DNA of 9,638 nucleotides from a virus (Duplodnaviria; Heunggongvirae; Uroviricota; Caudoviricetes). The stretch spans positions 1-9,638 of the IMG/VR virus record IMGVR_UViG_2537561977_000015, one strand, 5' to 3'. The notes under the pieces were generated by a model. That model was given only the letters and a program-made list of their open reading frames with translations. It was not told the DNA's origin and did no database searches. Positions 1 to 9,638 of this stretch are shown in pieces (positions within the stretch are counted from its first letter, which is position 1; every line of letters starts with the position of its first letter). A program made the translations under genes and the position numbers.

Positions 1-993
1 CTAATCGATGGACAGTTTATGGACACTTTCAGCCAGCGGATTAAAGTTGATCGCGTCCTGTAAGAAGTCCGGCGAAAAATGAGCGTACGTCATTGTCTGT
101 TGAATCGTGGCATGCCCAAGAATTCGTTGTAACGTAACAATATTTCCGCCATTCATCATAAAGTGTGTGGCAAATGTATGACGCATGACATGTGTAGCCT
201 GCCCCTTCGGCAAATCCGGTTTAACCTCCTGAAGAATCTCCCGGAACTCCAGATAATCAACCTGATACAACAACCCCGTCCGACGGGTTTTAATCAGCGG
301 CACGACCGAATCAGCCACAGGAACTGAGCGAGACTTCCCATTCTTGGTGTTAAAGAACGTCACCCGGTTGCCAACGATATGCTCTCCACGTAGTTCTGAT
401 GCTTCACGCCATCGGGCACCAGTAGAAAGACACAGAATGGCAACACGACGCGCATCACCCTCCAGTCGCTCAAGAAGCTGCTCAATCTCATCATCAGAAA
501 GAAAGGCCATTTCTGTGTTCTGAACTTTCAGTTTGCGTATACCGCGTACAGGGTTCGCGTTGTGAAAGACCTCAGCTTCAATCAGCACCGTGAACATGGT
601 AGACAAAACACATAAATCACGATTAATACTGGACGGCATTAATCCGGCCTGTAATTTCTCTGACCTATACTCGAGCATAAATTTTCGCGTCATATGACTG
701 GCACGAGGATCTCCCATTTCACGAATAACCTTCCCTAGCCTGACTCTGTAGCTATCCCCGTAAGCCTGATTACGCCCGTCAAGCATCCACCACGCATCAA
801 GCAGCTCTGATAATCGCCGCTGATCAGCTGGCTTAGCCTGCCATGGCTTGTCATGGAAGTTCTGTAACACATATTTCTCAAACTCCTGAGCCTTTGATTT
901 CAGGGTAAAGATTTTTCGAATCCGCTTTCCTTCTGCCCCCTGCGGCCTTACATCAACCTGATAACGTCCGTCTTTGAGTTGCTTAATCGACAT
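1..993 (-). CDS. int: Tyrosine site-specific recombinase (integrase), P2-phage integrase family; complete, 330 aa
   Basis: Minus-strand ORF whose stop (TAG, + strand cta) is bases 1-3 of the window. The translation carries the conserved C-terminal catalytic region of phage tyrosine integrases (...LCLSTGARWREA..., ...HVMRHTFATHFMMNGGNIVTLQRILGHATIQQTMTYAHFSPDFL...). The N-terminus MSIKQLKDGRYQVDVRP resembles P2-type integrases as I recall them. I place the start at the ATG at 991-993 (SD-like GGAGGGG upstream) rather than the TTG at 1006-1008 used in the ORF track. Confidence 0.9.
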   Translation of the reverse strand: MSIKQLKDGRYQVDVRPQGAEGKRIRKIFTLKSKAQEFEKYVLQNFHDKPWQAKPADQRRLSELLDAWWMLDGRNQAYGDSYRVRLGKVIREMGDPRASHMTRKFMLEYRSEKLQAGLMPSSINRDLCVLSTMFTVLIEAEVFHNANPVRGIRKLKVQNTEMAFLSDDEIEQLLERLEGDARRVAILCLSTGARWREASELRGEHIVGNRVTFFNTKNGKSRSVPVADSVVPLIKTRRTGLLYQVDYLEFREILQEVKPDLPKGQATHVMRHTFATHFMMNGGNIVTLQRILGHATIQQTMTYAHFSPDFLQDAINFNPLAESVHKLSID

Positions 994-1062
994 GATTAGC
1001 CCCTCCAACGGATAAATTAACTAAACACTCCTTGCGAGATGTAATTCGCTCAATGTGTATCG

Positions 1063-1410
1063 TCAGCCAACATTGCGGCCTGATCGGGGTGATTTTTGGG
1101 TAATGCCGATTGAAGGCTGATCGTCCTCCAACTGAATAGAGCCATCAAGAGAGAGAGCCGGGGCTATCTGCCCTCCGGCTTCAAATGTTTCATCTGTCGT
1201 TAACCAAAGCGCATACTTTTTGAGTCGTGAATTCTTTGTAATCTTGAACAAAATTTCACTCCCTATCCCTTCTTGTCTTCCCGTTTCGTAATATCTTTGG
1301 GTATTAACCGGAATCCCTGTAAGTTCAAAGAATTGCTTTCTTGTCAGCCCTTCACTCTTCCGGATCAATAAAATTTTCTCGCCAATACATGTTGACAGTG
1401 TCGAATTCAT
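1063..1410 (-). CDS. Immunity repressor, P2 C-repressor-like / short XRE-type HTH protein (115 aa)
   Basis: Small minus-strand ORF directly upstream of and co-oriented with int, the position of the immunity repressor in P2-like phages. The N-terminal region has an HTH-like segment (KILLIRKSEGLTRKQFFELTGIPVNTQRYYETGR) and a GQIAPAL segment that I recall from P2 C-family repressors. Family assignment is from memory, not a search. Confidence 0.7.
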   Translation of the reverse strand: MNSTLSTCIGEKILLIRKSEGLTRKQFFELTGIPVNTQRYYETGRQEGIGSEILFKITKNSRLKKYALWLTTDETFEAGGQIAPALSLDGSIQLEDDQPSIGITQKSPRSGRNVG

Positions 1411-1511
1411 ACTACTAAAATCCTCTCAAAGTGTCGTAATCTCGACATTGAAACAAACCAAAACAAACCATCACAAGGCGCGACAAGCGTACCAATGCAA
1501 GAGGATAACAA
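1411..1511. promoter_or_regulatory. Divergent switch region between repressor and early operon; contains a perfect tandem direct repeat AAACAAACCA x2 (1451..1470) and a short palindrome TGTCG-N6-CGACA (1433..1449)
   Basis: A 101-bp non-coding gap between two divergently transcribed genes. The tandem 10-mer is read directly from the sequence. P2-type C repressors are known to bind direct repeats overlapping the early promoter, so this is a candidate operator. Exact -35/-10 elements could not be assigned confidently. Confidence 0.5.
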
Positions 1512-2033
1512 ATGCGGGACATCATTGCCGATAAAGAGTTATCTGACACCAAACAACCTCACGCAAGTAGCGGCATTAGCGAATCCGTTGATGCCGCCAA
1601 CGACAACGAACACGAAGAAAACAAGAAAAAGCGTTCCTACAAAAAAGGAGCGACTTTACGGCTGGATGGTCCGATCGCCGGGCTTTGCTCTCTGGAAAAA
1701 GGCGCGGCATATATTGGGCTAACAAAATCTGCACTGCGCGTAGCCATTCATCGCGGTCAAATGCCGGGACATAAAACGCGCACTAACCCGGAAGATGAAA
1801 ACTCAGACGGCGTATGGTGGTTTAACGCCAAAGAGTGGGACAAGTTGGCTGATGAGCTACCAGAGTGCGAACCACCAGAATGGCACAACTGGAAAAGTTA
1901 CTGGACGTATGACCGCCAGAAAAGAAAGTTCTCTCCAGCCAACAAAGAAGACTGCCAGACCGTTAACGGAAAACGGGTTTATACAGGCAGAAGCTCAAAG
2001 CTGGAGCGACTCAAAAGTAACCAGGTCAACTAA
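1512..2033 (+). CDS. Early-operon DNA-binding protein, Cox/Apl-like (excisionase/regulator-like) with N- and C-terminal extensions, 173 aa
   Basis: First gene of the rightward operon, divergent from the repressor. SD GAGGA lies 7 nt upstream of the ATG. The internal segment GAAYIGLTKSALRVAIHRGQMP followed by a W-rich segment (GVWWFNAKEW) resembles the HTH-plus-wing layout of Cox/excisionase-type proteins. The protein is about twice the length of P2 Cox, so this assignment is tentative. Confidence 0.55.
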   Translation: MRDIIADKELSDTKQPHASSGISESVDAANDNEHEENKKKRSYKKGATLRLDGPIAGLCSLEKGAAYIGLTKSALRVAIHRGQMPGHKTRTNPEDENSDGVWWFNAKEWDKLADELPECEPPEWHNWKSYWTYDRQKRKFSPANKEDCQTVNGKRVYTGRSSKLERLKSNQVN

Positions 2034-2988: not shown

Positions 2989-3339
2989 ATGAAACAACAA
3001 AGCAATTCTTCACAACGGCGCTTCCGCAACGGCGCAGAACGCCATGCTAACCGTTTCGCTACCAGTGCATCACGTAGCAGCTCTCGCTACAGCCTGAGCG
3101 AAACACACGCAACACCGGATGGCCACGCTGTAAAACAAATCGGCGAGCACACCTGGCTGATTGAGAAAGCTGGAATCGTGGTTCACAGGTGCCCCCGCAA
3201 CCCATTTACCGGAAACCGCATTTTTGCACTGAGCAGCGGCGACAATCAGTTCGGACAGGATTTCACATTGTACGAAGCGCTACGCACGGTTGACCGCTTA
3301 ATTGCAGGACGTAGTTTTCAGCATCCACGGGGGAATTAA
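2989..3339 (+). CDS. Hypothetical protein (116 aa), Ser/Arg-rich N-terminus
   Basis: ORF at the start of a tightly packed plus-strand gene string. The SD is weak. No recognisable motif. Confidence 0.5.
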   Translation: MKQQSNSSQRRFRNGAERHANRFATSASRSSSRYSLSETHATPDGHAVKQIGEHTWLIEKAGIVVHRCPRNPFTGNRIFALSSGDNQFGQDFTLYEALRTVDRLIAGRSFQHPRGN

Positions 3340-3617: not shown

Positions 3618-3860
3618 ATGGGCAAAGAATATAAAACTCTCATTAACAAAGCACTTGAGCGTTTTTATTTTCGCTTAAACACATCAGGGGTCCACGCCGA
3701 ACACGCAGCCCATGATTCATTAGCAAGAGCAATCAGAAGTCTTTATGACGTACCCTTTTATGCTGACGATTTGGATGCAATTAACGAGCTTTCCGAACTC
3801 GTCTGCGCCGCAGAATGCGGAGAGCGCATTGAACCATATAAACTGGGGAATATCGTATGA
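3618..3860 (+). CDS. Hypothetical protein (80 aa)
   Basis: GGGGAAA SD-like sequence upstream of the ATG. Its stop overlaps the start of the next small ORF (ATGA). Confidence 0.55.
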   Translation: MGKEYKTLINKALERFYFRLNTSGVHAEHAAHDSLARAIRSLYDVPFYADDLDAINELSELVCAAECGERIEPYKLGNIV

Positions 3861-3970
3861 GTATATTTATATCATGGATTGTTCTGATTATTTCGGTGGC
3901 CTGCGCAATCGGGATTATGCGAATTATTAATTCAGTAAAAAAGATTGAACGCTTTTTCACTGAAGAATAA
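3857..3970 (+). CDS. Small membrane peptide (37 aa: MSIFISWIVLIISVACAIGIMRIINSVKKIERFFTEE), one predicted transmembrane helix plus a charged tail
   Basis: Not in the ORF track because it is below the size cutoff. Found by reading: ATG at 3857 overlaps the upstream TGA stop (ATGA coupling), GGGGAA SD-like sequence 7-8 nt upstream, hydrophobic N-terminal 20 residues followed by a basic/acidic tail, in-frame stop TAA at 3968-3970. Confidence 0.45.
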   Translation: MSIFISWIVLIISVACAIGIMRIINSVKKIERFFTEE

Positions 3971-4063
3971 TCGCGCAAATAAGATTTCAGGTTAAATAAG
4001 AAAATGTAAAAACAATCCGCATTCGCGGAGGTATTCGCACAAGTAAATAACGGAGATACAAAA

Positions 4064-4474
4064 ATGCTCGAAAAAGAAGAAGGTATTATCAAAGCACTGA
4101 AAGAAATTTCAAAGACAGAAAACGAAGTAGCGAAAAAAGCCGTGGCAAATGCTCATATGAACGTCGCAACCCACACACTGATAGTCGCAAGAGTCACGGC
4201 AGAAGCAGCCGAAATTATCGCAAAACAGAATGCTGAACTGGCAGTTCTCAGAACACAACCAGTCACCGGACTGGATTTGTCTAACACCGGACGCCTTATT
4301 TACACAATTGATTCGGAGCTAAAGCCATACATCATTCTCGCCGGAGTGCAGGATAAATACCTGATTACCCTTTACCCCATAAAAGAATCAGAAATCATGA
4401 AAGACCTCCGCCTGATTGAGCGCACTCACGCTGTATTTACTGATGCCGCACAACGCGCCGTATTAAACGCATAA
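4064..4474 (+). CDS. Hypothetical protein (136 aa)
   Basis: ORF with a GGAG SD about 9 nt upstream. Last gene of the AT-rich block. No recognisable motif. Confidence 0.55.
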   Translation: MLEKEEGIIKALKEISKTENEVAKKAVANAHMNVATHTLIVARVTAEAAEIIAKQNAELAVLRTQPVTGLDLSNTGRLIYTIDSELKPYIILAGVQDKYLITLYPIKESEIMKDLRLIERTHAVFTDAAQRAVLNA

Positions 4475-5404: not shown

Positions 5405-5476
5405 AACAGGTCATCGCCGATGCGCATACAAAAAAACCGCTTGCCATGCCGCAATCAGCCAGGTTACATTTCCGCT

Positions 5477-5551
5477 GCACCTCATAAAACGGGTGCCGGG
5501 ATTTCCACCCCGCTGACAAACGTAGCGCACAACCGCGCCAGCGGTTTTTTT
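5477..5551 (+). ncRNA. Candidate small RNA (about 75 nt) ending at an intrinsic terminator; speculative
   Basis: Possible sigma70 promoter (-35 TTGCCA at 5441..5446, 18-nt spacer, -10 TACATT at 5465..5470) followed by a segment with internal pairing (GGGTG/CACCC) and the terminator at 5531..5551. No protein-like ORF in this stretch. The 5' end is a guess. Confidence 0.2.
5531..5551 (+). terminator. Rho-independent terminator: AACCGC-GCCA-GCGGTT followed by a T-run
   Basis: 6-bp stem with a GCCA loop, followed by 7 consecutive T on the plus strand (5545..5551). It lies about 130 nt downstream of the last gene of the preceding operon. Confidence 0.6.
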
Positions 5552-5730
5552 GTGCGTACTGTATCGCCACGTCTTTTTCGCACACGAATTATGGTGGGGC
5601 GTACGGGGCCGACTTCGGTCGGGCCGGGTTCTGCGTTTGCCGGTTGTGGAAACCCTGTACGTCTCACCACCCCGAGTTTTCCACCTCTGGATGGTGAGTT
5701 TTCAAAACTTACACACGTAGAGGCCACATC

Positions 5731-5961
5731 ATGGCAAACCGCAAACAACAGCGCGCATACGCTGCGCGTCGTCACATCCAGACTGAAATCAACCGCAGAC
5801 TTTTCCGCGCATCACGCGTCGCGCAAATCATGCACATCAATATGCTGCATGAGCGCAGCCACGCACTATCGAACACCTATTGCGCCTCTGTTTTCAGCTA
5901 TCTGGCGGATGATCTGCACGAGCTTCAGCAGCTCATTCAGCAGCAAAACAAACTCCATTAA
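5731..5961 (+). CDS. Hypothetical small basic protein (76 aa), first gene after the structured intergenic region
   Basis: AGAGG SD 8 nt upstream of the ATG. Arg/Gln-rich helical-looking protein. Position and size resemble the small accessory proteins that precede the replication gene in P2-like phages, but I cannot assign a family from sequence. Confidence 0.55.
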   Translation: MANRKQQRAYAARRHIQTEINRRLFRASRVAQIMHINMLHERSHALSNTYCASVFSYLADDLHELQQLIQQQNKLH

Positions 5962-6033
5962 TTCCTGTTCCGGGCCTTTCCTGCACCTTGCGGCGGGAGG
6001 CCTTCGCACATCTGTAACAAGAGGATTGCCGCA

Positions 6034-6399
6034 ATGATTCTCGCCAACGACTTTCTTGAATACCTGCTCAACACAGAACGTGATCTTGCCGCTCGCGTGC
6101 GTGATCGTTATGACATGTACCTGAAATCCCTGCCTGTACCGCAGCTCGCTGACGGAAAAATTGTTATTGATGGCCGCTACATGATTGACAGCCATGAGGG
6201 AAATTACAGGCTTTACCGCATTGAAGGCGGCACCCCGTCCGTTATTGGCATTTACCAGCGCCCATCCTCTGCAATCGTCGATGTGATTGCCGACAGCATC
6301 CGCATCACACATCGCCATGCCGACACAGAAGACACCGTGCTGGAAATTCAGCGGCTGGCTACCGTCTGCCGCGACACCCTGAATGGCATGACGAAGTAA
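6034..6399 (+). CDS. Hypothetical protein (121 aa) immediately upstream of the replication initiator
   Basis: AAGAGGA SD 9 nt upstream. Compact ORF whose stop lies 6 nt before the next ATG. No recognisable motif. Confidence 0.55.
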   Translation: MILANDFLEYLLNTERDLAARVRDRYDMYLKSLPVPQLADGKIVIDGRYMIDSHEGNYRLYRIEGGTPSVIGIYQRPSSAIVDVIADSIRITHRHADTEDTVLEIQRLATVCRDTLNGMTK

Positions 6400-6405
6400 A
6401 TCACT

Positions 6406-6852
6406 ATGGCGGCAGAGTACATCAGGGACTGGCAACAACCGCGCCACGCAGTGGGGCGTGAAGGAACGGGGATCCCCGCTCCTGAATCCGCGCTTTCCTC
6501 CTGGCTGGATGCCTACCGGGCAGAGAACGAGCGCCGCCAGGAAATGGCTGATGCGGCGTTCTCCGCCACGACGCTGGGCAACCTGATTAATAAAAGCCTG
6601 GATGCACAGGAAAAACAGGACAAAACCATCACACTGGCAGGAGACGCCAGAAAACAGGCACGCGGCGCGGTGGATGAAGCCATGGCCTCGCTGCGCCTGC
6701 TGCCGTCCTATCTGCGCGATCCGCTTATTCGCCGCCTCTCTTTCCTGCGCAAAAACAGGAAGCCGATCGTCAGAAAGGCAAAAAGAGCCGACAGCAGAAC
6801 GCTATGCACGCGGAACCCTGCGCAAAATATTCGAACGTCTGGACCGCACTGA
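6406..6852 (+). CDS. Probable N-terminal part of the gene-A-like replication initiator, in a different frame from the main ORF (frame disruption near 6780)
   Basis: Protein-like translation from 6406 to about 6790, with a degenerate tail after that. The overlapping frame of 6602..9226 becomes protein-like only from about 6790. An A5 run sits at the junction (6780..6784). Confidence 0.45.
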   Translation: MAAEYIRDWQQPRHAVGREGTGIPAPESALSSWLDAYRAENERRQEMADAAFSATTLGNLINKSLDAQEKQDKTITLAGDARKQARGAVDEAMASLRLLPSYLRDPLIRRLSFLRKNRKPIVRKAKRADSRTLCTRNPAQNIRTSGPH

Positions 6853-9226
6853 CAGACACTGGCTGACACCGGGTTATCGCTCCCTTGCCGGACGTGAACG
6901 CCTGGATGATTTGCTTTACCTGCCACAGCTCAACAAGCACCAGATACAGACGCTGGCCACCATGACAGCGGCGATGTTCAGCAGCACCTTCGAAACACTC
7001 TGTGATGGCTTTGGTGCCAGAGATGGCGAGCTGACCATGGAGGTGGCGCTGAAGGCATATCAGATGCTGGCACGCATGGCGTTACATCTGCACACCATGC
7101 CGCCGCATTATGACGCACTGACAACAGACAAGGACCGGAGGAACGCACCGGATACGGAACTGCTGCCGGGCGCAATTCTTCGCCTGACCTGTGCGGAATG
7201 GTGGAAACGCAAACTGTGGCTGTTACGTTGCGAGTGGAGAGAAGAACAACTCCGCGCCGCCTGTCTGGTTTCCAGAAAAACATCACCCTATCTGAGCCAG
7301 GACGCGTTAAGCGCGTTTCGCGCACAGCGCGAGAAAACACGCGATTTCCTGAAAAGTTTCATGCTGGAAAATGAAGACGGGTTCACGATTGATCTCGAGA
7401 CGGTGTATTACGCGGGAGTAAGTAACCCGGTTCACCGTAAGGCAGAAATGATGGCCACCATGAAGGGACTGGAACTTCTGGCCGAAGCCCGTGGCGACAG
7501 AGCGGTGTTTCTGACTGTCACCTGCCCGTCAAAATACCACGCAACAACGGAGAACGGTCATCCGAACCCCAAATGGAACGGGGCCACCATGCGCGACTCC
7601 AGCGATTACCTGGTTAACACGTTTTTTGCGGCGGTCCGCAAAAAACTGAACCGCGACGGTCTGCGCTGGTATGGCATCCGCACGGTGGAGCCTCACCATG
7701 ACGGCACTGTGCACTGGCATATGATGGTCTTTGCACATCCGGACGAGATTGAAACCATCGTGTCCCACGTCTGCGATATTGCCATTCAGGAAGACCGCCA
7801 CGAGCTGGGCGATGACATAACTCCGCGTTTTAAGGCGGAGTACGTAGACGGCTCAAAAGGCACACCAACCAGCTACATCGCCACCTACATCGGAAAGAAC
7901 CTGGACAGCCGCGCCGTGGATGGCATCGACCCGAAAACGGGCAAGCCACGCGTTGACCACGAAACCGGAAAATCAATGGCCGAGAGCGTGGAACGCGCCA
8001 TCGGCTGGGCGCGCCTTCACCGGGTCCGCCAGTTCCAGTTCTTTGGTATCCCCTCCCGTCAGGTGTGGCGTGAACTGCGCCGCCTTGCCAGCCAGATGGC
8101 ACGCAACCCGGAAGGCCCGCAACGGCTGAAGGATGACGCAATGGACGCGGTACTCGCTGCCGCTGATGCCGGATGTTTTGCCACCTACATTGAGAAACAG
8201 GGTGGCGTACTTGTTCCACGCAAAGACTACCTGATTCGCACCGCCTACGACCTCGCAGATGAGCTGAACGATTACGGTGAACAGAGCGTACAGATTTACG
8301 GGATCTGGTCGCCGCTCATTGGGGAGTCTTCCCGCGTATGCACGCATCCGGATAACTGGAAGCTGGTAAGACGCAAACCGGAAGCGGAAGACAGCGCCCG
8401 CGAAAATGGTTTTGACCTTCAGGGCGGCCCTGCCGCCCCTTGGACTCGTGGCAATAACTGTCCCCGTGTACAGGAAACGAACAACAACGGGACAGAACAG
8501 CCGGAAGAACGGCCAGCACCGTGGCCGCAGCTCCCTGACGGCGTTGAAGTGAACGAATGGATGCGCTCACTGAAACGGCACGAACGCCGGGCGCTGATGC
8601 GTTCGCTTCGTGACAAACAGGCAAAAAACAGCAGTGATGAAATGCAGAACTGGACGCAGAGCCGCAAACAGCCGCGACCTTTGCCTGATAACCACGAATT
8701 ACTCGCTAAAGAATGGCGGGAGTCTGCTGAATCTCTCGGCATGCATATCGGTGAACAACAGATGCAGCACTTGTTACGGGGCGGCAGTCTGTACGTTGAC
8801 GGCAGCATCATTGCACCGCAGGGATTTAAAATTGTACGCAAACCGGATACCCGCCCGGACAGCCGAATCACGCAACTCTGGCAACGCCTGAGCCGTAATC
8901 ACGGCGTAAGCAGCACGGAGATCCGTCATAACCCTGTCGCCAGCTATCTGGAACAGCTGGGGACATCAGACCCCGAAGCAGCCGCACGCCTGGCATCCAT
9001 ACTTCAGCAGGACCAGAACACCATGAAAACACCCGTTACCGTGCTTTCTGACATGCTGCGCGCCATCCGCGACGCAGAGCACGCACAGAGAATCAGTGAA
9101 ACCACTGAACGCGCCCGCCGCAAAGCAGACCTGCTGCGGGGTGGCCTGACCAGTGGAAACAAAAAACAGACAGAAACGGGACTCACGAATCCCGTAAATG
9201 AGCAAAAAACGCGCAGCGATATATGA
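6602..9226 (+). CDS. Rolling-circle replication initiator, P2 gene A-like HUH replication endonuclease (coordinates are those of the longest ORF; true 5' end uncertain)
   Basis: HUH metal-binding motif (TVHWHMMVF, nt 7712..7720 encode H-W-H) followed about 50 residues later by the paired catalytic tyrosines (TSYIATYIGKN, Tyr codons at 7874 and 7886). This is the signature arrangement of phiX174/P2 gpA-type Rep proteins. Other segments (LTVTCPSKYH, GIRTVEPHHDGT) resemble P2 gpA as I recall it. The first 180 nt of this frame look non-coding. Confidence 0.85.
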   Translation: MHRKNRTKPSHWQETPENRHAARWMKPWPRCACCRPICAIRLFAASLSCAKTGSRSSERQKEPTAERYARGTLRKIFERLDRTDRHWLTPGYRSLAGRERLDDLLYLPQLNKHQIQTLATMTAAMFSSTFETLCDGFGARDGELTMEVALKAYQMLARMALHLHTMPPHYDALTTDKDRRNAPDTELLPGAILRLTCAEWWKRKLWLLRCEWREEQLRAACLVSRKTSPYLSQDALSAFRAQREKTRDFLKSFMLENEDGFTIDLETVYYAGVSNPVHRKAEMMATMKGLELLAEARGDRAVFLTVTCPSKYHATTENGHPNPKWNGATMRDSSDYLVNTFFAAVRKKLNRDGLRWYGIRTVEPHHDGTVHWHMMVFAHPDEIETIVSHVCDIAIQEDRHELGDDITPRFKAEYVDGSKGTPTSYIATYIGKNLDSRAVDGIDPKTGKPRVDHETGKSMAESVERAIGWARLHRVRQFQFFGIPSRQVWRELRRLASQMARNPEGPQRLKDDAMDAVLAAADAGCFATYIEKQGGVLVPRKDYLIRTAYDLADELNDYGEQSVQIYGIWSPLIGESSRVCTHPDNWKLVRRKPEAEDSARENGFDLQGGPAAPWTRGNNCPRVQETNNNGTEQPEERPAPWPQLPDGVEVNEWMRSLKRHERRALMRSLRDKQAKNSSDEMQNWTQSRKQPRPLPDNHELLAKEWRESAESLGMHIGEQQMQHLLRGGSLYVDGSIIAPQGFKIVRKPDTRPDSRITQLWQRLSRNHGVSSTEIRHNPVASYLEQLGTSDPEAAARLASILQQDQNTMKTPVTVLSDMLRAIRDAEHAQRISETTERARRKADLLRGGLTSGNKKQTETGLTNPVNEQKTRSDI

Positions 9227-9302: not shown

Positions 9303-9638
9303 ATGAAAATTTGTATCGACGACGGCTCCACCAACATCAAGCTGGCATGGACTGAGAACGGCGAACGCCGCAACGCCATCAGCCCGAACAGCTTCAAGTC
9401 GGAATGGTCTGCGCCGTTCGGTGGCATGCAGCCCGCGAACTACATGCTTGATGGCGTGCGCTATGGTTTTGATCCGGTCAGCGATCGCTTTGTCCAGACA
9501 ACCGACACGCAATACCAATACAGCGATGTAAATGTCATTGCCATTCATCACGCGCTGGTCAAATCAGGCATCACGCCACAGGAGGTGGATGTGGTTGTCA
9601 CCCTGCCACTGAGCGAGTATTTCGACACAAACGCACAG
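9303..9638 (+). CDS. parM: ParM/StbA-family actin-like segregation ATPase, N-terminal 112 codons (truncated by window end)
   Basis: AAGGA SD 9 nt upstream of the ATG. The N-terminus MKICIDDGSTNIKLAW...ISPNSFK...YSDVNVIAIHHAL...VDVVVTLPLSEY closely matches the phosphate-1 motif and N-terminal region of plasmid R1 ParM (MLVFIDDGSTNIKLQW...ISPNSFK...YSDVNVVAVHHAL...) as I recall it. Confidence 0.75.
   Translation, partial: MKICIDDGSTNIKLAWTENGERRNAISPNSFKSEWSAPFGGMQPANYMLDGVRYGFDPVSDRFVQTTDTQYQYSDVNVIAIHHALVKSGITPQEVDVVVTLPLSEYFDTNAQ

Follow-up and report, generated by a model that had tools for sequence, protein, structure and literature searches.

A conserved 37-codon gene for a predicted small membrane protein, overlapping a DUF4754 gene in the early region of P88-like prophages

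The stretch of DNA analysed here (the window; 9,638 nucleotides) is 100% identical over 9638 bases to our locus L010, on contig ADUP01000018.1 of the Escherichia coli draft assembly GCA_000188815.2. It is the early region, running from int, C and cox to gpA, of a P88-like prophage (Xuanwuvirus, Peduoviridae), a relative of P2. Among named phages, Escherichia phage P88 and other members of Xuanwuvirus come closest to it, and the surrounding region was matched in 1362/5426 complete E. coli genomes. The gene under study encodes a peptide of 37 residues and is listed with its neighbours in Table 1. Scanning found no terminator-like site on the + strand between the Pe-like promoter and position 3857, and no convincing internal promoter for the peptide gene, the matches reaching only 9/12 of the consensus, at chance frequency. 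The Pe-like promoter and the lack of a + strand terminator before the ORF, both judged from consensus matches only, suggest that the peptide gene most simply belongs to a repressor-controlled, rightward early lytic operon, between cox and gpA. An earlier interpretation made from the letters of the DNA (the sequence-only reading) had described a 37-residue ORF at this position, placing it in a phage early region with its start overlapping the preceding stop as ATGA; position, length and overlap were all found as described, and the Pe-like promoter before cox, with no + strand terminator up to the ORF, agrees with the early-region assignment.

Table 1. Features of the window (positions are those of the 9,638-nucleotide stretch)
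Feature	Position	Strand	Basis or remark
Integrase	1-1008	-	
C-type HTH repressor	1063-1410	-	
Strong Pe-like early promoter, TTGACA-18-TAAAAT	1392-1421	+	consensus scan, 11/12 match
Cox	1512-2033	+	
DUF4761 gene	2989-3339	+	
84-aa ORF	between DUF4761 and DUF4754 genes		
DUF4754 gene, 80 aa	3618-3860	+	PF15946, E = 3e-47; always directly 5' of the peptide gene
Shine-Dalgarno-like GGGGA	3845-3849	+	7 nt 5' of the ATG, within the 3' end of the DUF4754 gene
Small membrane peptide gene (predicted), 37 aa, MSIFISWIVLIISVACAIGIMRIINSVKKIERFFTEE	3857-3970	+	ATG at 3857, TAA end at 3970
ATGA start/stop overlap with the DUF4754 gene, candidate translational coupling signal	3857-3860	+	read directly
Predicted transmembrane helix, codons 2-21, SIFISWIVLIISVACAIGIM	3860-3919	+	hydropathy, AlphaFold2
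Basic amphipathic, predicted cytoplasmic tail, codons 22-35, RIINSVKKIERFFT	3920-3961	+	hydrophobic moment, conservation
T5 run, codons 33-34	3953-3957	+	length changes here give 45-aa tail variants in relatives
Inverted repeat/hairpin TCCGC-ATTC-GCGGA	4016-4029		46 nt past the peptide stop; A-rich tract 3998-4015
136-aa and 112-aa ORFs	3' of the peptide gene		
MarR-like winged-helix (wHTH) protein gene	between 112-aa ORF and 'Derepression' gene		
isrK and C4 RNAs	5477-5551 and 5587-5674	+	Rfam matches, directly upstream of the PF25738 gene
'Derepression' family gene	5731-5961		PF25738
Replication protein gpA	6406-9226	+	PF05840; split

Several features elsewhere in the window were observed in passing. 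The gpA gene is split into a 148-aa ORF (6406-6852) and a remainder in another frame; relative to locus L004, which is 99.7% identical and has an intact gpA of 940 aa, the window lacks one A near 6751, in an A-run, and one C near 6792, and the split means either that the prophage is defective or that the draft assembly is in error. Past gpA (~9303-9638) lies a plasmid segregation gene of the ParM/StbA type, also found downstream of gpA in loci L003-L010, and the PLSDB 'plasmid' NZ_CP148288.1 (34.5 kb) carries both the peptide and DUF4754; these are hints that P88-like elements may also occur as circular plasmid-like forms. The two RNAs in Table 1 are gathering-level Rfam matches on the + strand, to the isrK Hfq-binding RNA (65.5 bits) and the C4 antisense RNA (79.2 bits), and the region resembles a P1/P7/P4-style antisense-RNA immunity or derepression module set in a P2-like early region. 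A doubtful ORF of 205 aa (5420-6037) is placed over the isrK/C4 region by some gene callers. Inside the rightward early operon, the minus strand carries an 82-aa ORF (2678-2926), called in related loci as a shorter 59-aa version and followed by a strong minus-strand terminator-like hairpin (2669-2650; 7 pairs, 6 of them G-C); this ORF may be a moron, with transcription opposed to that of the early operon.

The peptide gene begins within the end of the DUF4754 gene, with which it has the three bases of the stop codon TGA (3858-3860) in common at its ATG. Ribosomes completing DUF4754 would re-initiate at the ATGA, aided by the conserved Shine-Dalgarno motif, and through this predicted re-initiation the two proteins would be produced jointly. 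ORFs of at least 30 aa number 106 in the window, so that an open frame of 37 codons is by itself unremarkable and comparative evidence has to decide whether it is a gene. For this comparison we used 91 related loci, of which 80 came from IMG/VR viral contigs found with DUF4754 and the remainder from genomes and phages; a DUF4754 scan of genome contigs gave two loci only, one from E. albertii and one doubtful MAG match. The ATGA overlap and an intact ORF (37 or 45 aa) are present in all 91 related loci, and the overlap is also present in six distant loci, giving 97 loci in all. The peptide frame is open in 44/44 unique sequences, whilst each of the five other frames is interrupted in 34-44 of the 44. 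One opposite-strand ORF (3781-4092; 103 aa) was considered and rejected, its frame being interrupted in 34/44 unique relatives. Among 35 unique versions, the first 33 codons show 10, 5 and 17 variable sites at codon positions 1, 2 and 3, and the pooled pN/pS is 0.21 in the peptide frame, compared with 1.47 and 1.25 when the remaining two + strand frames are read.

The gene is also recognisable at greater distances. An exhaustive phmmer search of 1.84 billion representatives returned 8 clusters, all of 32-59 aa and 47-82% identical to the peptide, and tblastn found a match in 12/14 P88-like phage records, at 86-97% identity over residues 1-37 (residues 1-33 in two of the 12). Four divergent clusters were traced to their contigs, and all four lie in P2-like early regions ending in gpA, in the order DUF4761, an 80-aa DUF4754-type gene and the peptide gene, the last two with the 4-nt overlap. 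Shine-Dalgarno motifs (GAGGAG, AGGGG, GAGGTGG or AGGAGG) are kept at unchanged spacing in the distant loci, despite the differing C-terminus of the DUF4754 protein that overlaps them. In these distant relatives the peptide retains 47-65% identity (48-64% over 33 residues), as against 24-38% for DUF4754, and the nucleotide identity is 59-70% where the peptide identity is 48-64%. On these comparative grounds, the 37-codon frame is a genuine protein-coding gene under purifying selection. The number of ORFs in the window, together with the low G+C content (32.5%) and flat codon-position profile of the peptide ORF, would be in keeping with a chance open frame in AT-rich DNA that is no gene, but the probability of this is negligible, as it is effectively refuted by the 91/91 intact loci, the pN/pS, the distant synteny and the closed alternative frames. 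The sequence-only reading had proposed conservation in related prophages as a check and frame-disrupting variation as the observation that would speak against a gene; the ORF proved to be conserved, and the first 33 codons are free of such variation across the 97 homologous regions.

The same reading had called the peptide unannotated and likely to be missed by ORF-length cutoffs, and neither statement held. Gene calls for exactly this protein exist in 27 blocks of public assemblies, among them the contig that the window matches in full, and both PGAP and the authors of the P88 genome annotate the ORF. NCBI accessions have been assigned to it, and UniRef lists it as 'Prophage membrane protein'. 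In strain C11, ST131, EPEC E2348/69 and O157:H7 the 37-aa ORF is a PGAP gene call, labelled hypothetical protein. In P88 it is gp07 (YP_009113050.1), annotated 'membrane protein', which is the same gene and 92% identical over all 37 residues; gp07 and the RefSeq orthologs WP_000021656.1, WP_000021715.1, WP_000021668.1 and WP_000021655.1, all of them computer annotations, follow the DUF4754 gene in the same way, overlapping it by 4 nt. Searches of Pfam, PHROGs, NCBIfam, PADLOC and PDB sequences gave no significant match to the peptide. A literature search found neither 'DUF4754' nor the peptide sequence in any of the papers covered, and the gene is not discussed in the P88 paper or in a 2026 paper on P2-like diversity. 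The peptide is therefore already catalogued, and is a member of a well-known class of small phage membrane proteins.

The upstream gene is constant in position. The DUF4754 protein corresponds to PHROG 2549, where no function is assigned, and AlphaFold2 predicts a three-helix bundle (pLDDT 83) for which Foldseek gave no PDB fold match below E = 3.8. The pairing of the two genes is exchangeable: in locus L102 (3762-4126) the DUF4754 protein is window-like (78% amino acid identity) whereas the peptide gene is identical to that of locus L101, whose own DUF4754 is only 38% identical to that of the window. This mixed pairing indicates recombination at or near the junction of the two genes. We also searched for DUF4754-peptide fusions (Rosetta stone proteins) among the DUF4754 matches of 103-128 aa, which are mostly single sequences from raw-read assemblies; these were rejected as frameshift read-throughs, with no in-frame fusion among them.

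The peptide itself has a simple predicted architecture. The best 19-residue Kyte-Doolittle window covers residues 3-21 and scores 2.72, and all seven charged residues stand from R22 onward, with none before it; the remainder after the span, RIINSVKKIERFFTEE, holds four basic and three acidic residues. AlphaFold2, run with the single sequence, gives one uninterrupted helix over residues 2-35 (pLDDT 94). Hydropathy, charge placement and structure prediction thus agree on a single-helix membrane peptide with a charged C-terminal tail, as the sequence-only reading had proposed. The basic flank of a membrane span faces the cytoplasm (the positive-inside rule); R22, K28, K29 and R32 would hold the tail on the cytoplasmic side, and the predicted topology is N-out/C-in, with the short N-terminus towards the periplasm and residues 2-21 spanning the inner membrane.

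Conservation along the helix is uneven. M1, S6, W7, L10, A17 and I24 are invariant among five divergent representatives, and S/N2, S/A13, G19 and R/K22 are nearly invariant in the same set. On a helical wheel S6, L10, A17 and I24, along with S2 and S13, fall within ~80 degrees, and the invariant S6, W7, L10, A17 and I24 group together on a single side of the helix. A moment of invariance of 0.81 was obtained, a value reached by 1.1% of permutations (p = 0.011), which with five representatives is modestly significant. Specific helix-helix packing typically shows itself as a conserved face of small residues in a membrane helix, as in GxxxG-like motifs. Part of the high conservation of the peptide could also reflect the limited residue alphabet of a membrane span. 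The tail is amphipathic in four divergent homologs (hydrophobic moment 0.41-0.75), and K28, I30, E31 and F34 are conserved in 4/5 of the divergent representatives.

Frame changes affect only the last few residues of the peptide. Indels in the gene are confined to the T5 run, where a one-base change in length replaces the last four residues by an unrelated tail of 12 residues, giving the 45-aa form; this has happened in several independent backgrounds. Tails of the FSLxNNxxNKxxx type occur in six loci and also in representatives P0002 and P0005, and there is one FFLTNN... variant. Since the last four residues are replaceable in this manner, the extreme C-terminus would not be critical: either it is dispensable, or some of the 45-aa variants are homopolymer sequencing errors. 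The variants could also be real slippage variants.

Beyond the stop codon lies the hairpin of Table 1. No change was seen in its outer four pairs across 92 loci or in the distant loci L095, L099 and L101, the surroundings of which have diverged; at the fifth pair, 18 loci have T-A in place of C-G and 7 have no pairing, and the loop is variable. On the minus strand a T-run comes after the hairpin, which is scored there as an intrinsic terminator, whilst the flanking genes are on the + strand. The similarity between phages with different downstream genes stops just past the hairpin, which suggests that it marks the end of a conserved module and a mosaic boundary. Possible roles are to terminate antisense transcription coming from downstream morons, to act in RNA processing or stability, or to bind a protein. 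A minus-strand promoter-like site further downstream (4112-4085) was rejected, as it is not conserved in relatives and its transcript would end at ~4008, short of the ORF.

Comparison with known systems places the peptide by its shape and setting. A very short outside N-terminus, one span and a basic amphipathic C-terminal helix make up the layout of Pf3 coat and TatA-like proteins. The peptide has the same overall layout; a filamentous-phage coat protein, though, would be useless to a myovirus, and the TatA/E family match (12.4 bits against the NCBIfam cutoff of 104; E = 0.11) was set aside, together with a 5TM match (E = 0.041), as chance hydrophobic matches far below the cutoffs. Fil of coliphage 186, a protein of 75 aa, likewise comes from a P2-family phage, whose early lytic operon carries its gene after the switch region and before gene A, and its overexpression blocks cell division; unlike the peptide it has no N-terminal membrane span, and the two did not align at all. 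The functions suggested in the sequence-only reading, a Kil-type division inhibitor, a small membrane toxin or an exclusion factor, would be reasonable analogies. No Pfam, PHROG or NCBIfam match linked the peptide to Kil-, Fil- or DicB-type inhibitors; lambda Kil, KilR and DicB were compared through their Pfam models only, none of which matched. In phage P2, no counterpart was found between B and A.

Taking the evidence together, we tentatively favour a model, to which we give a little less than an even chance, in which this genuine early-operon gene codes for a specific membrane-protein binder that acts early in lytic growth. The specific binder is inferred from the fact that the peptide is conserved in sequence and not in hydrophobicity alone, that one face of the helix is invariant, and that its conservation outpaces that of its phage neighbours. 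The peptide would use its small/polar invariant face (S2, S6, L10, S/A13, A17 and I24) for a specific helix-helix contact with a slowly evolving membrane-protein partner. Conservation above that of the flanking phage genes points to such a slowly evolving partner, and would be more readily explained by a membrane protein of the host than by a phage protein that co-evolves; the peptide probably binds an inner-membrane protein of the host while early lytic development is under way, and the binding would modulate the envelope, division or DNA entry. Given its position in the early operon and its coupling, production of the peptide would coincide with that of DUF4754 and of the replication and takeover proteins, though a phage partner would agree with the strict DUF4754 coupling just as well as a host partner. 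Mechanisms of the proposed type are known: Gp11 of the staphylococcal phage PhiNM1, an early small membrane protein, binds MurG and DivIC and blocks division (PMC11237401). Gp11 and the peptide are both small membrane proteins from phage early genes, whereas the host of PhiNM1 is Gram positive and the phage is of a different type; the likeness is one of analogy, and no sequence relation is expected. A doubtful further step would make the peptide a binder resembling a 'protein antibiotic', with its small-residue face on an essential inner-membrane protein of Enterobacteriaceae, such as a component of the divisome or of the lipid II pathway, an insertase or a protease, so that envelope growth or division is transiently re-programmed in the early phase of P88-type development; DUF4754 would then be a modulator, co-delivered in fixed stoichiometry.

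The alternative closest to the favoured model turns the binding towards the phage itself: the peptide would be the membrane anchor or partner of the co-translated DUF4754 bundle, forming a membrane-tethered phage complex with no independent host target. The 4-nt-overlap adjacency in all 97 loci, across deep divergence, is what such a complex would lead one to expect; DUF4754 is predicted to be a small soluble helical bundle, and the conserved amphipathic cytoplasmic tail of the peptide could serve as its docking site. We nevertheless regard this as unlikely, as the pairing in L102 shows that the two are exchangeable without co-variation, the peptide evolves more slowly than DUF4754, and Rosetta-stone support is lacking, the long DUF4754 forms being frameshift read-throughs. 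By analogy with T4 Imm, a small phage-encoded inner-membrane protein (here predicted) that is expressed early (here inferred) may instead be a superinfection-exclusion factor that blocks DNA entry at the inner membrane during phage development. This is rather improbable: PADLOC returned 0 families for the 37-aa and 41-aa forms, the gene belongs to the constant core of the early region and not to a variable moron locus, and in lysogens the C repressor should keep its operon silent, the internal promoter matches, of only 9/12 and at chance frequency, being unconvincing.

In size (<50 aa), with one hydrophobic helix and a charged C-terminus, the peptide has the shape of type I toxins such as Hok, TisB, DinQ and Fst (PMC12648545), and it could accordingly be imagined as a non-specific small toxin, type I toxin- or holin-like, that depolarises or permeabilises the inner membrane. 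Such a non-specific role is less likely than specific binding, and we consider it highly improbable. Unlike those toxins, the peptide has no antisense RNA, no convincing promoter of its own and no leader of its own, and it is embedded in a long operon, overlap-coupled (as predicted) to its neighbour; no antisense RNA antitoxin was found at the ORF, the Rfam matches in the window lying only at 5477-5674, and there is no conserved antisense promoter over it. The conservation of one face in a sequence-specific manner would be unexpected of a pore former that needs hydrophobicity only, and early killing of the host would harm the phage. The gene is also outside a lysis cassette, as it lies between cox and gpA and not in the late setting, beside an endolysin, of a holin or antiholin. 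Finally, the act of translation alone may matter, carrying ribosomes over the gap or controlling the downstream hairpin and genes, with the peptide itself irrelevant. The ATGA overlap and the conserved hairpin 46 nt downstream would suit this, as would the annotation of phage 186, according to which A is translated only if translation proceeds as far as the end of orf84; it has only a very slight chance of being correct, as selection acts at the amino acid level (pN/pS 0.21; 5 second-position versus 17 third-position variable sites) and 48-64% protein identity is kept where the nucleotide identity is 59-70%.

As things stand, this is an ordinary conserved hypothetical gene, already caught by annotation pipelines, from a known class, the small phage membrane proteins, which is mostly uncharacterised. 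It is nonetheless well suited to study: its region occurs in 1362 of 5426 complete E. coli genomes, including those of ST131, O157:H7 and EPEC strains, the peptide is more conserved than its neighbours and offers a candidate interaction face, and P88 is an inducible, culturable phage. If the peptide anchors DUF4754, it would give a first handle on DUF4754 and DUF4761, which make up the constant core of the Xuanwuvirus early region. If the 'protein antibiotic' reading is true, it would be a natural ligand of 37 residues pointing to a druggable membrane target. If, as the favoured model has it, the peptide binds a host membrane protein, its partner would identify a target of phage takeover in the envelope.
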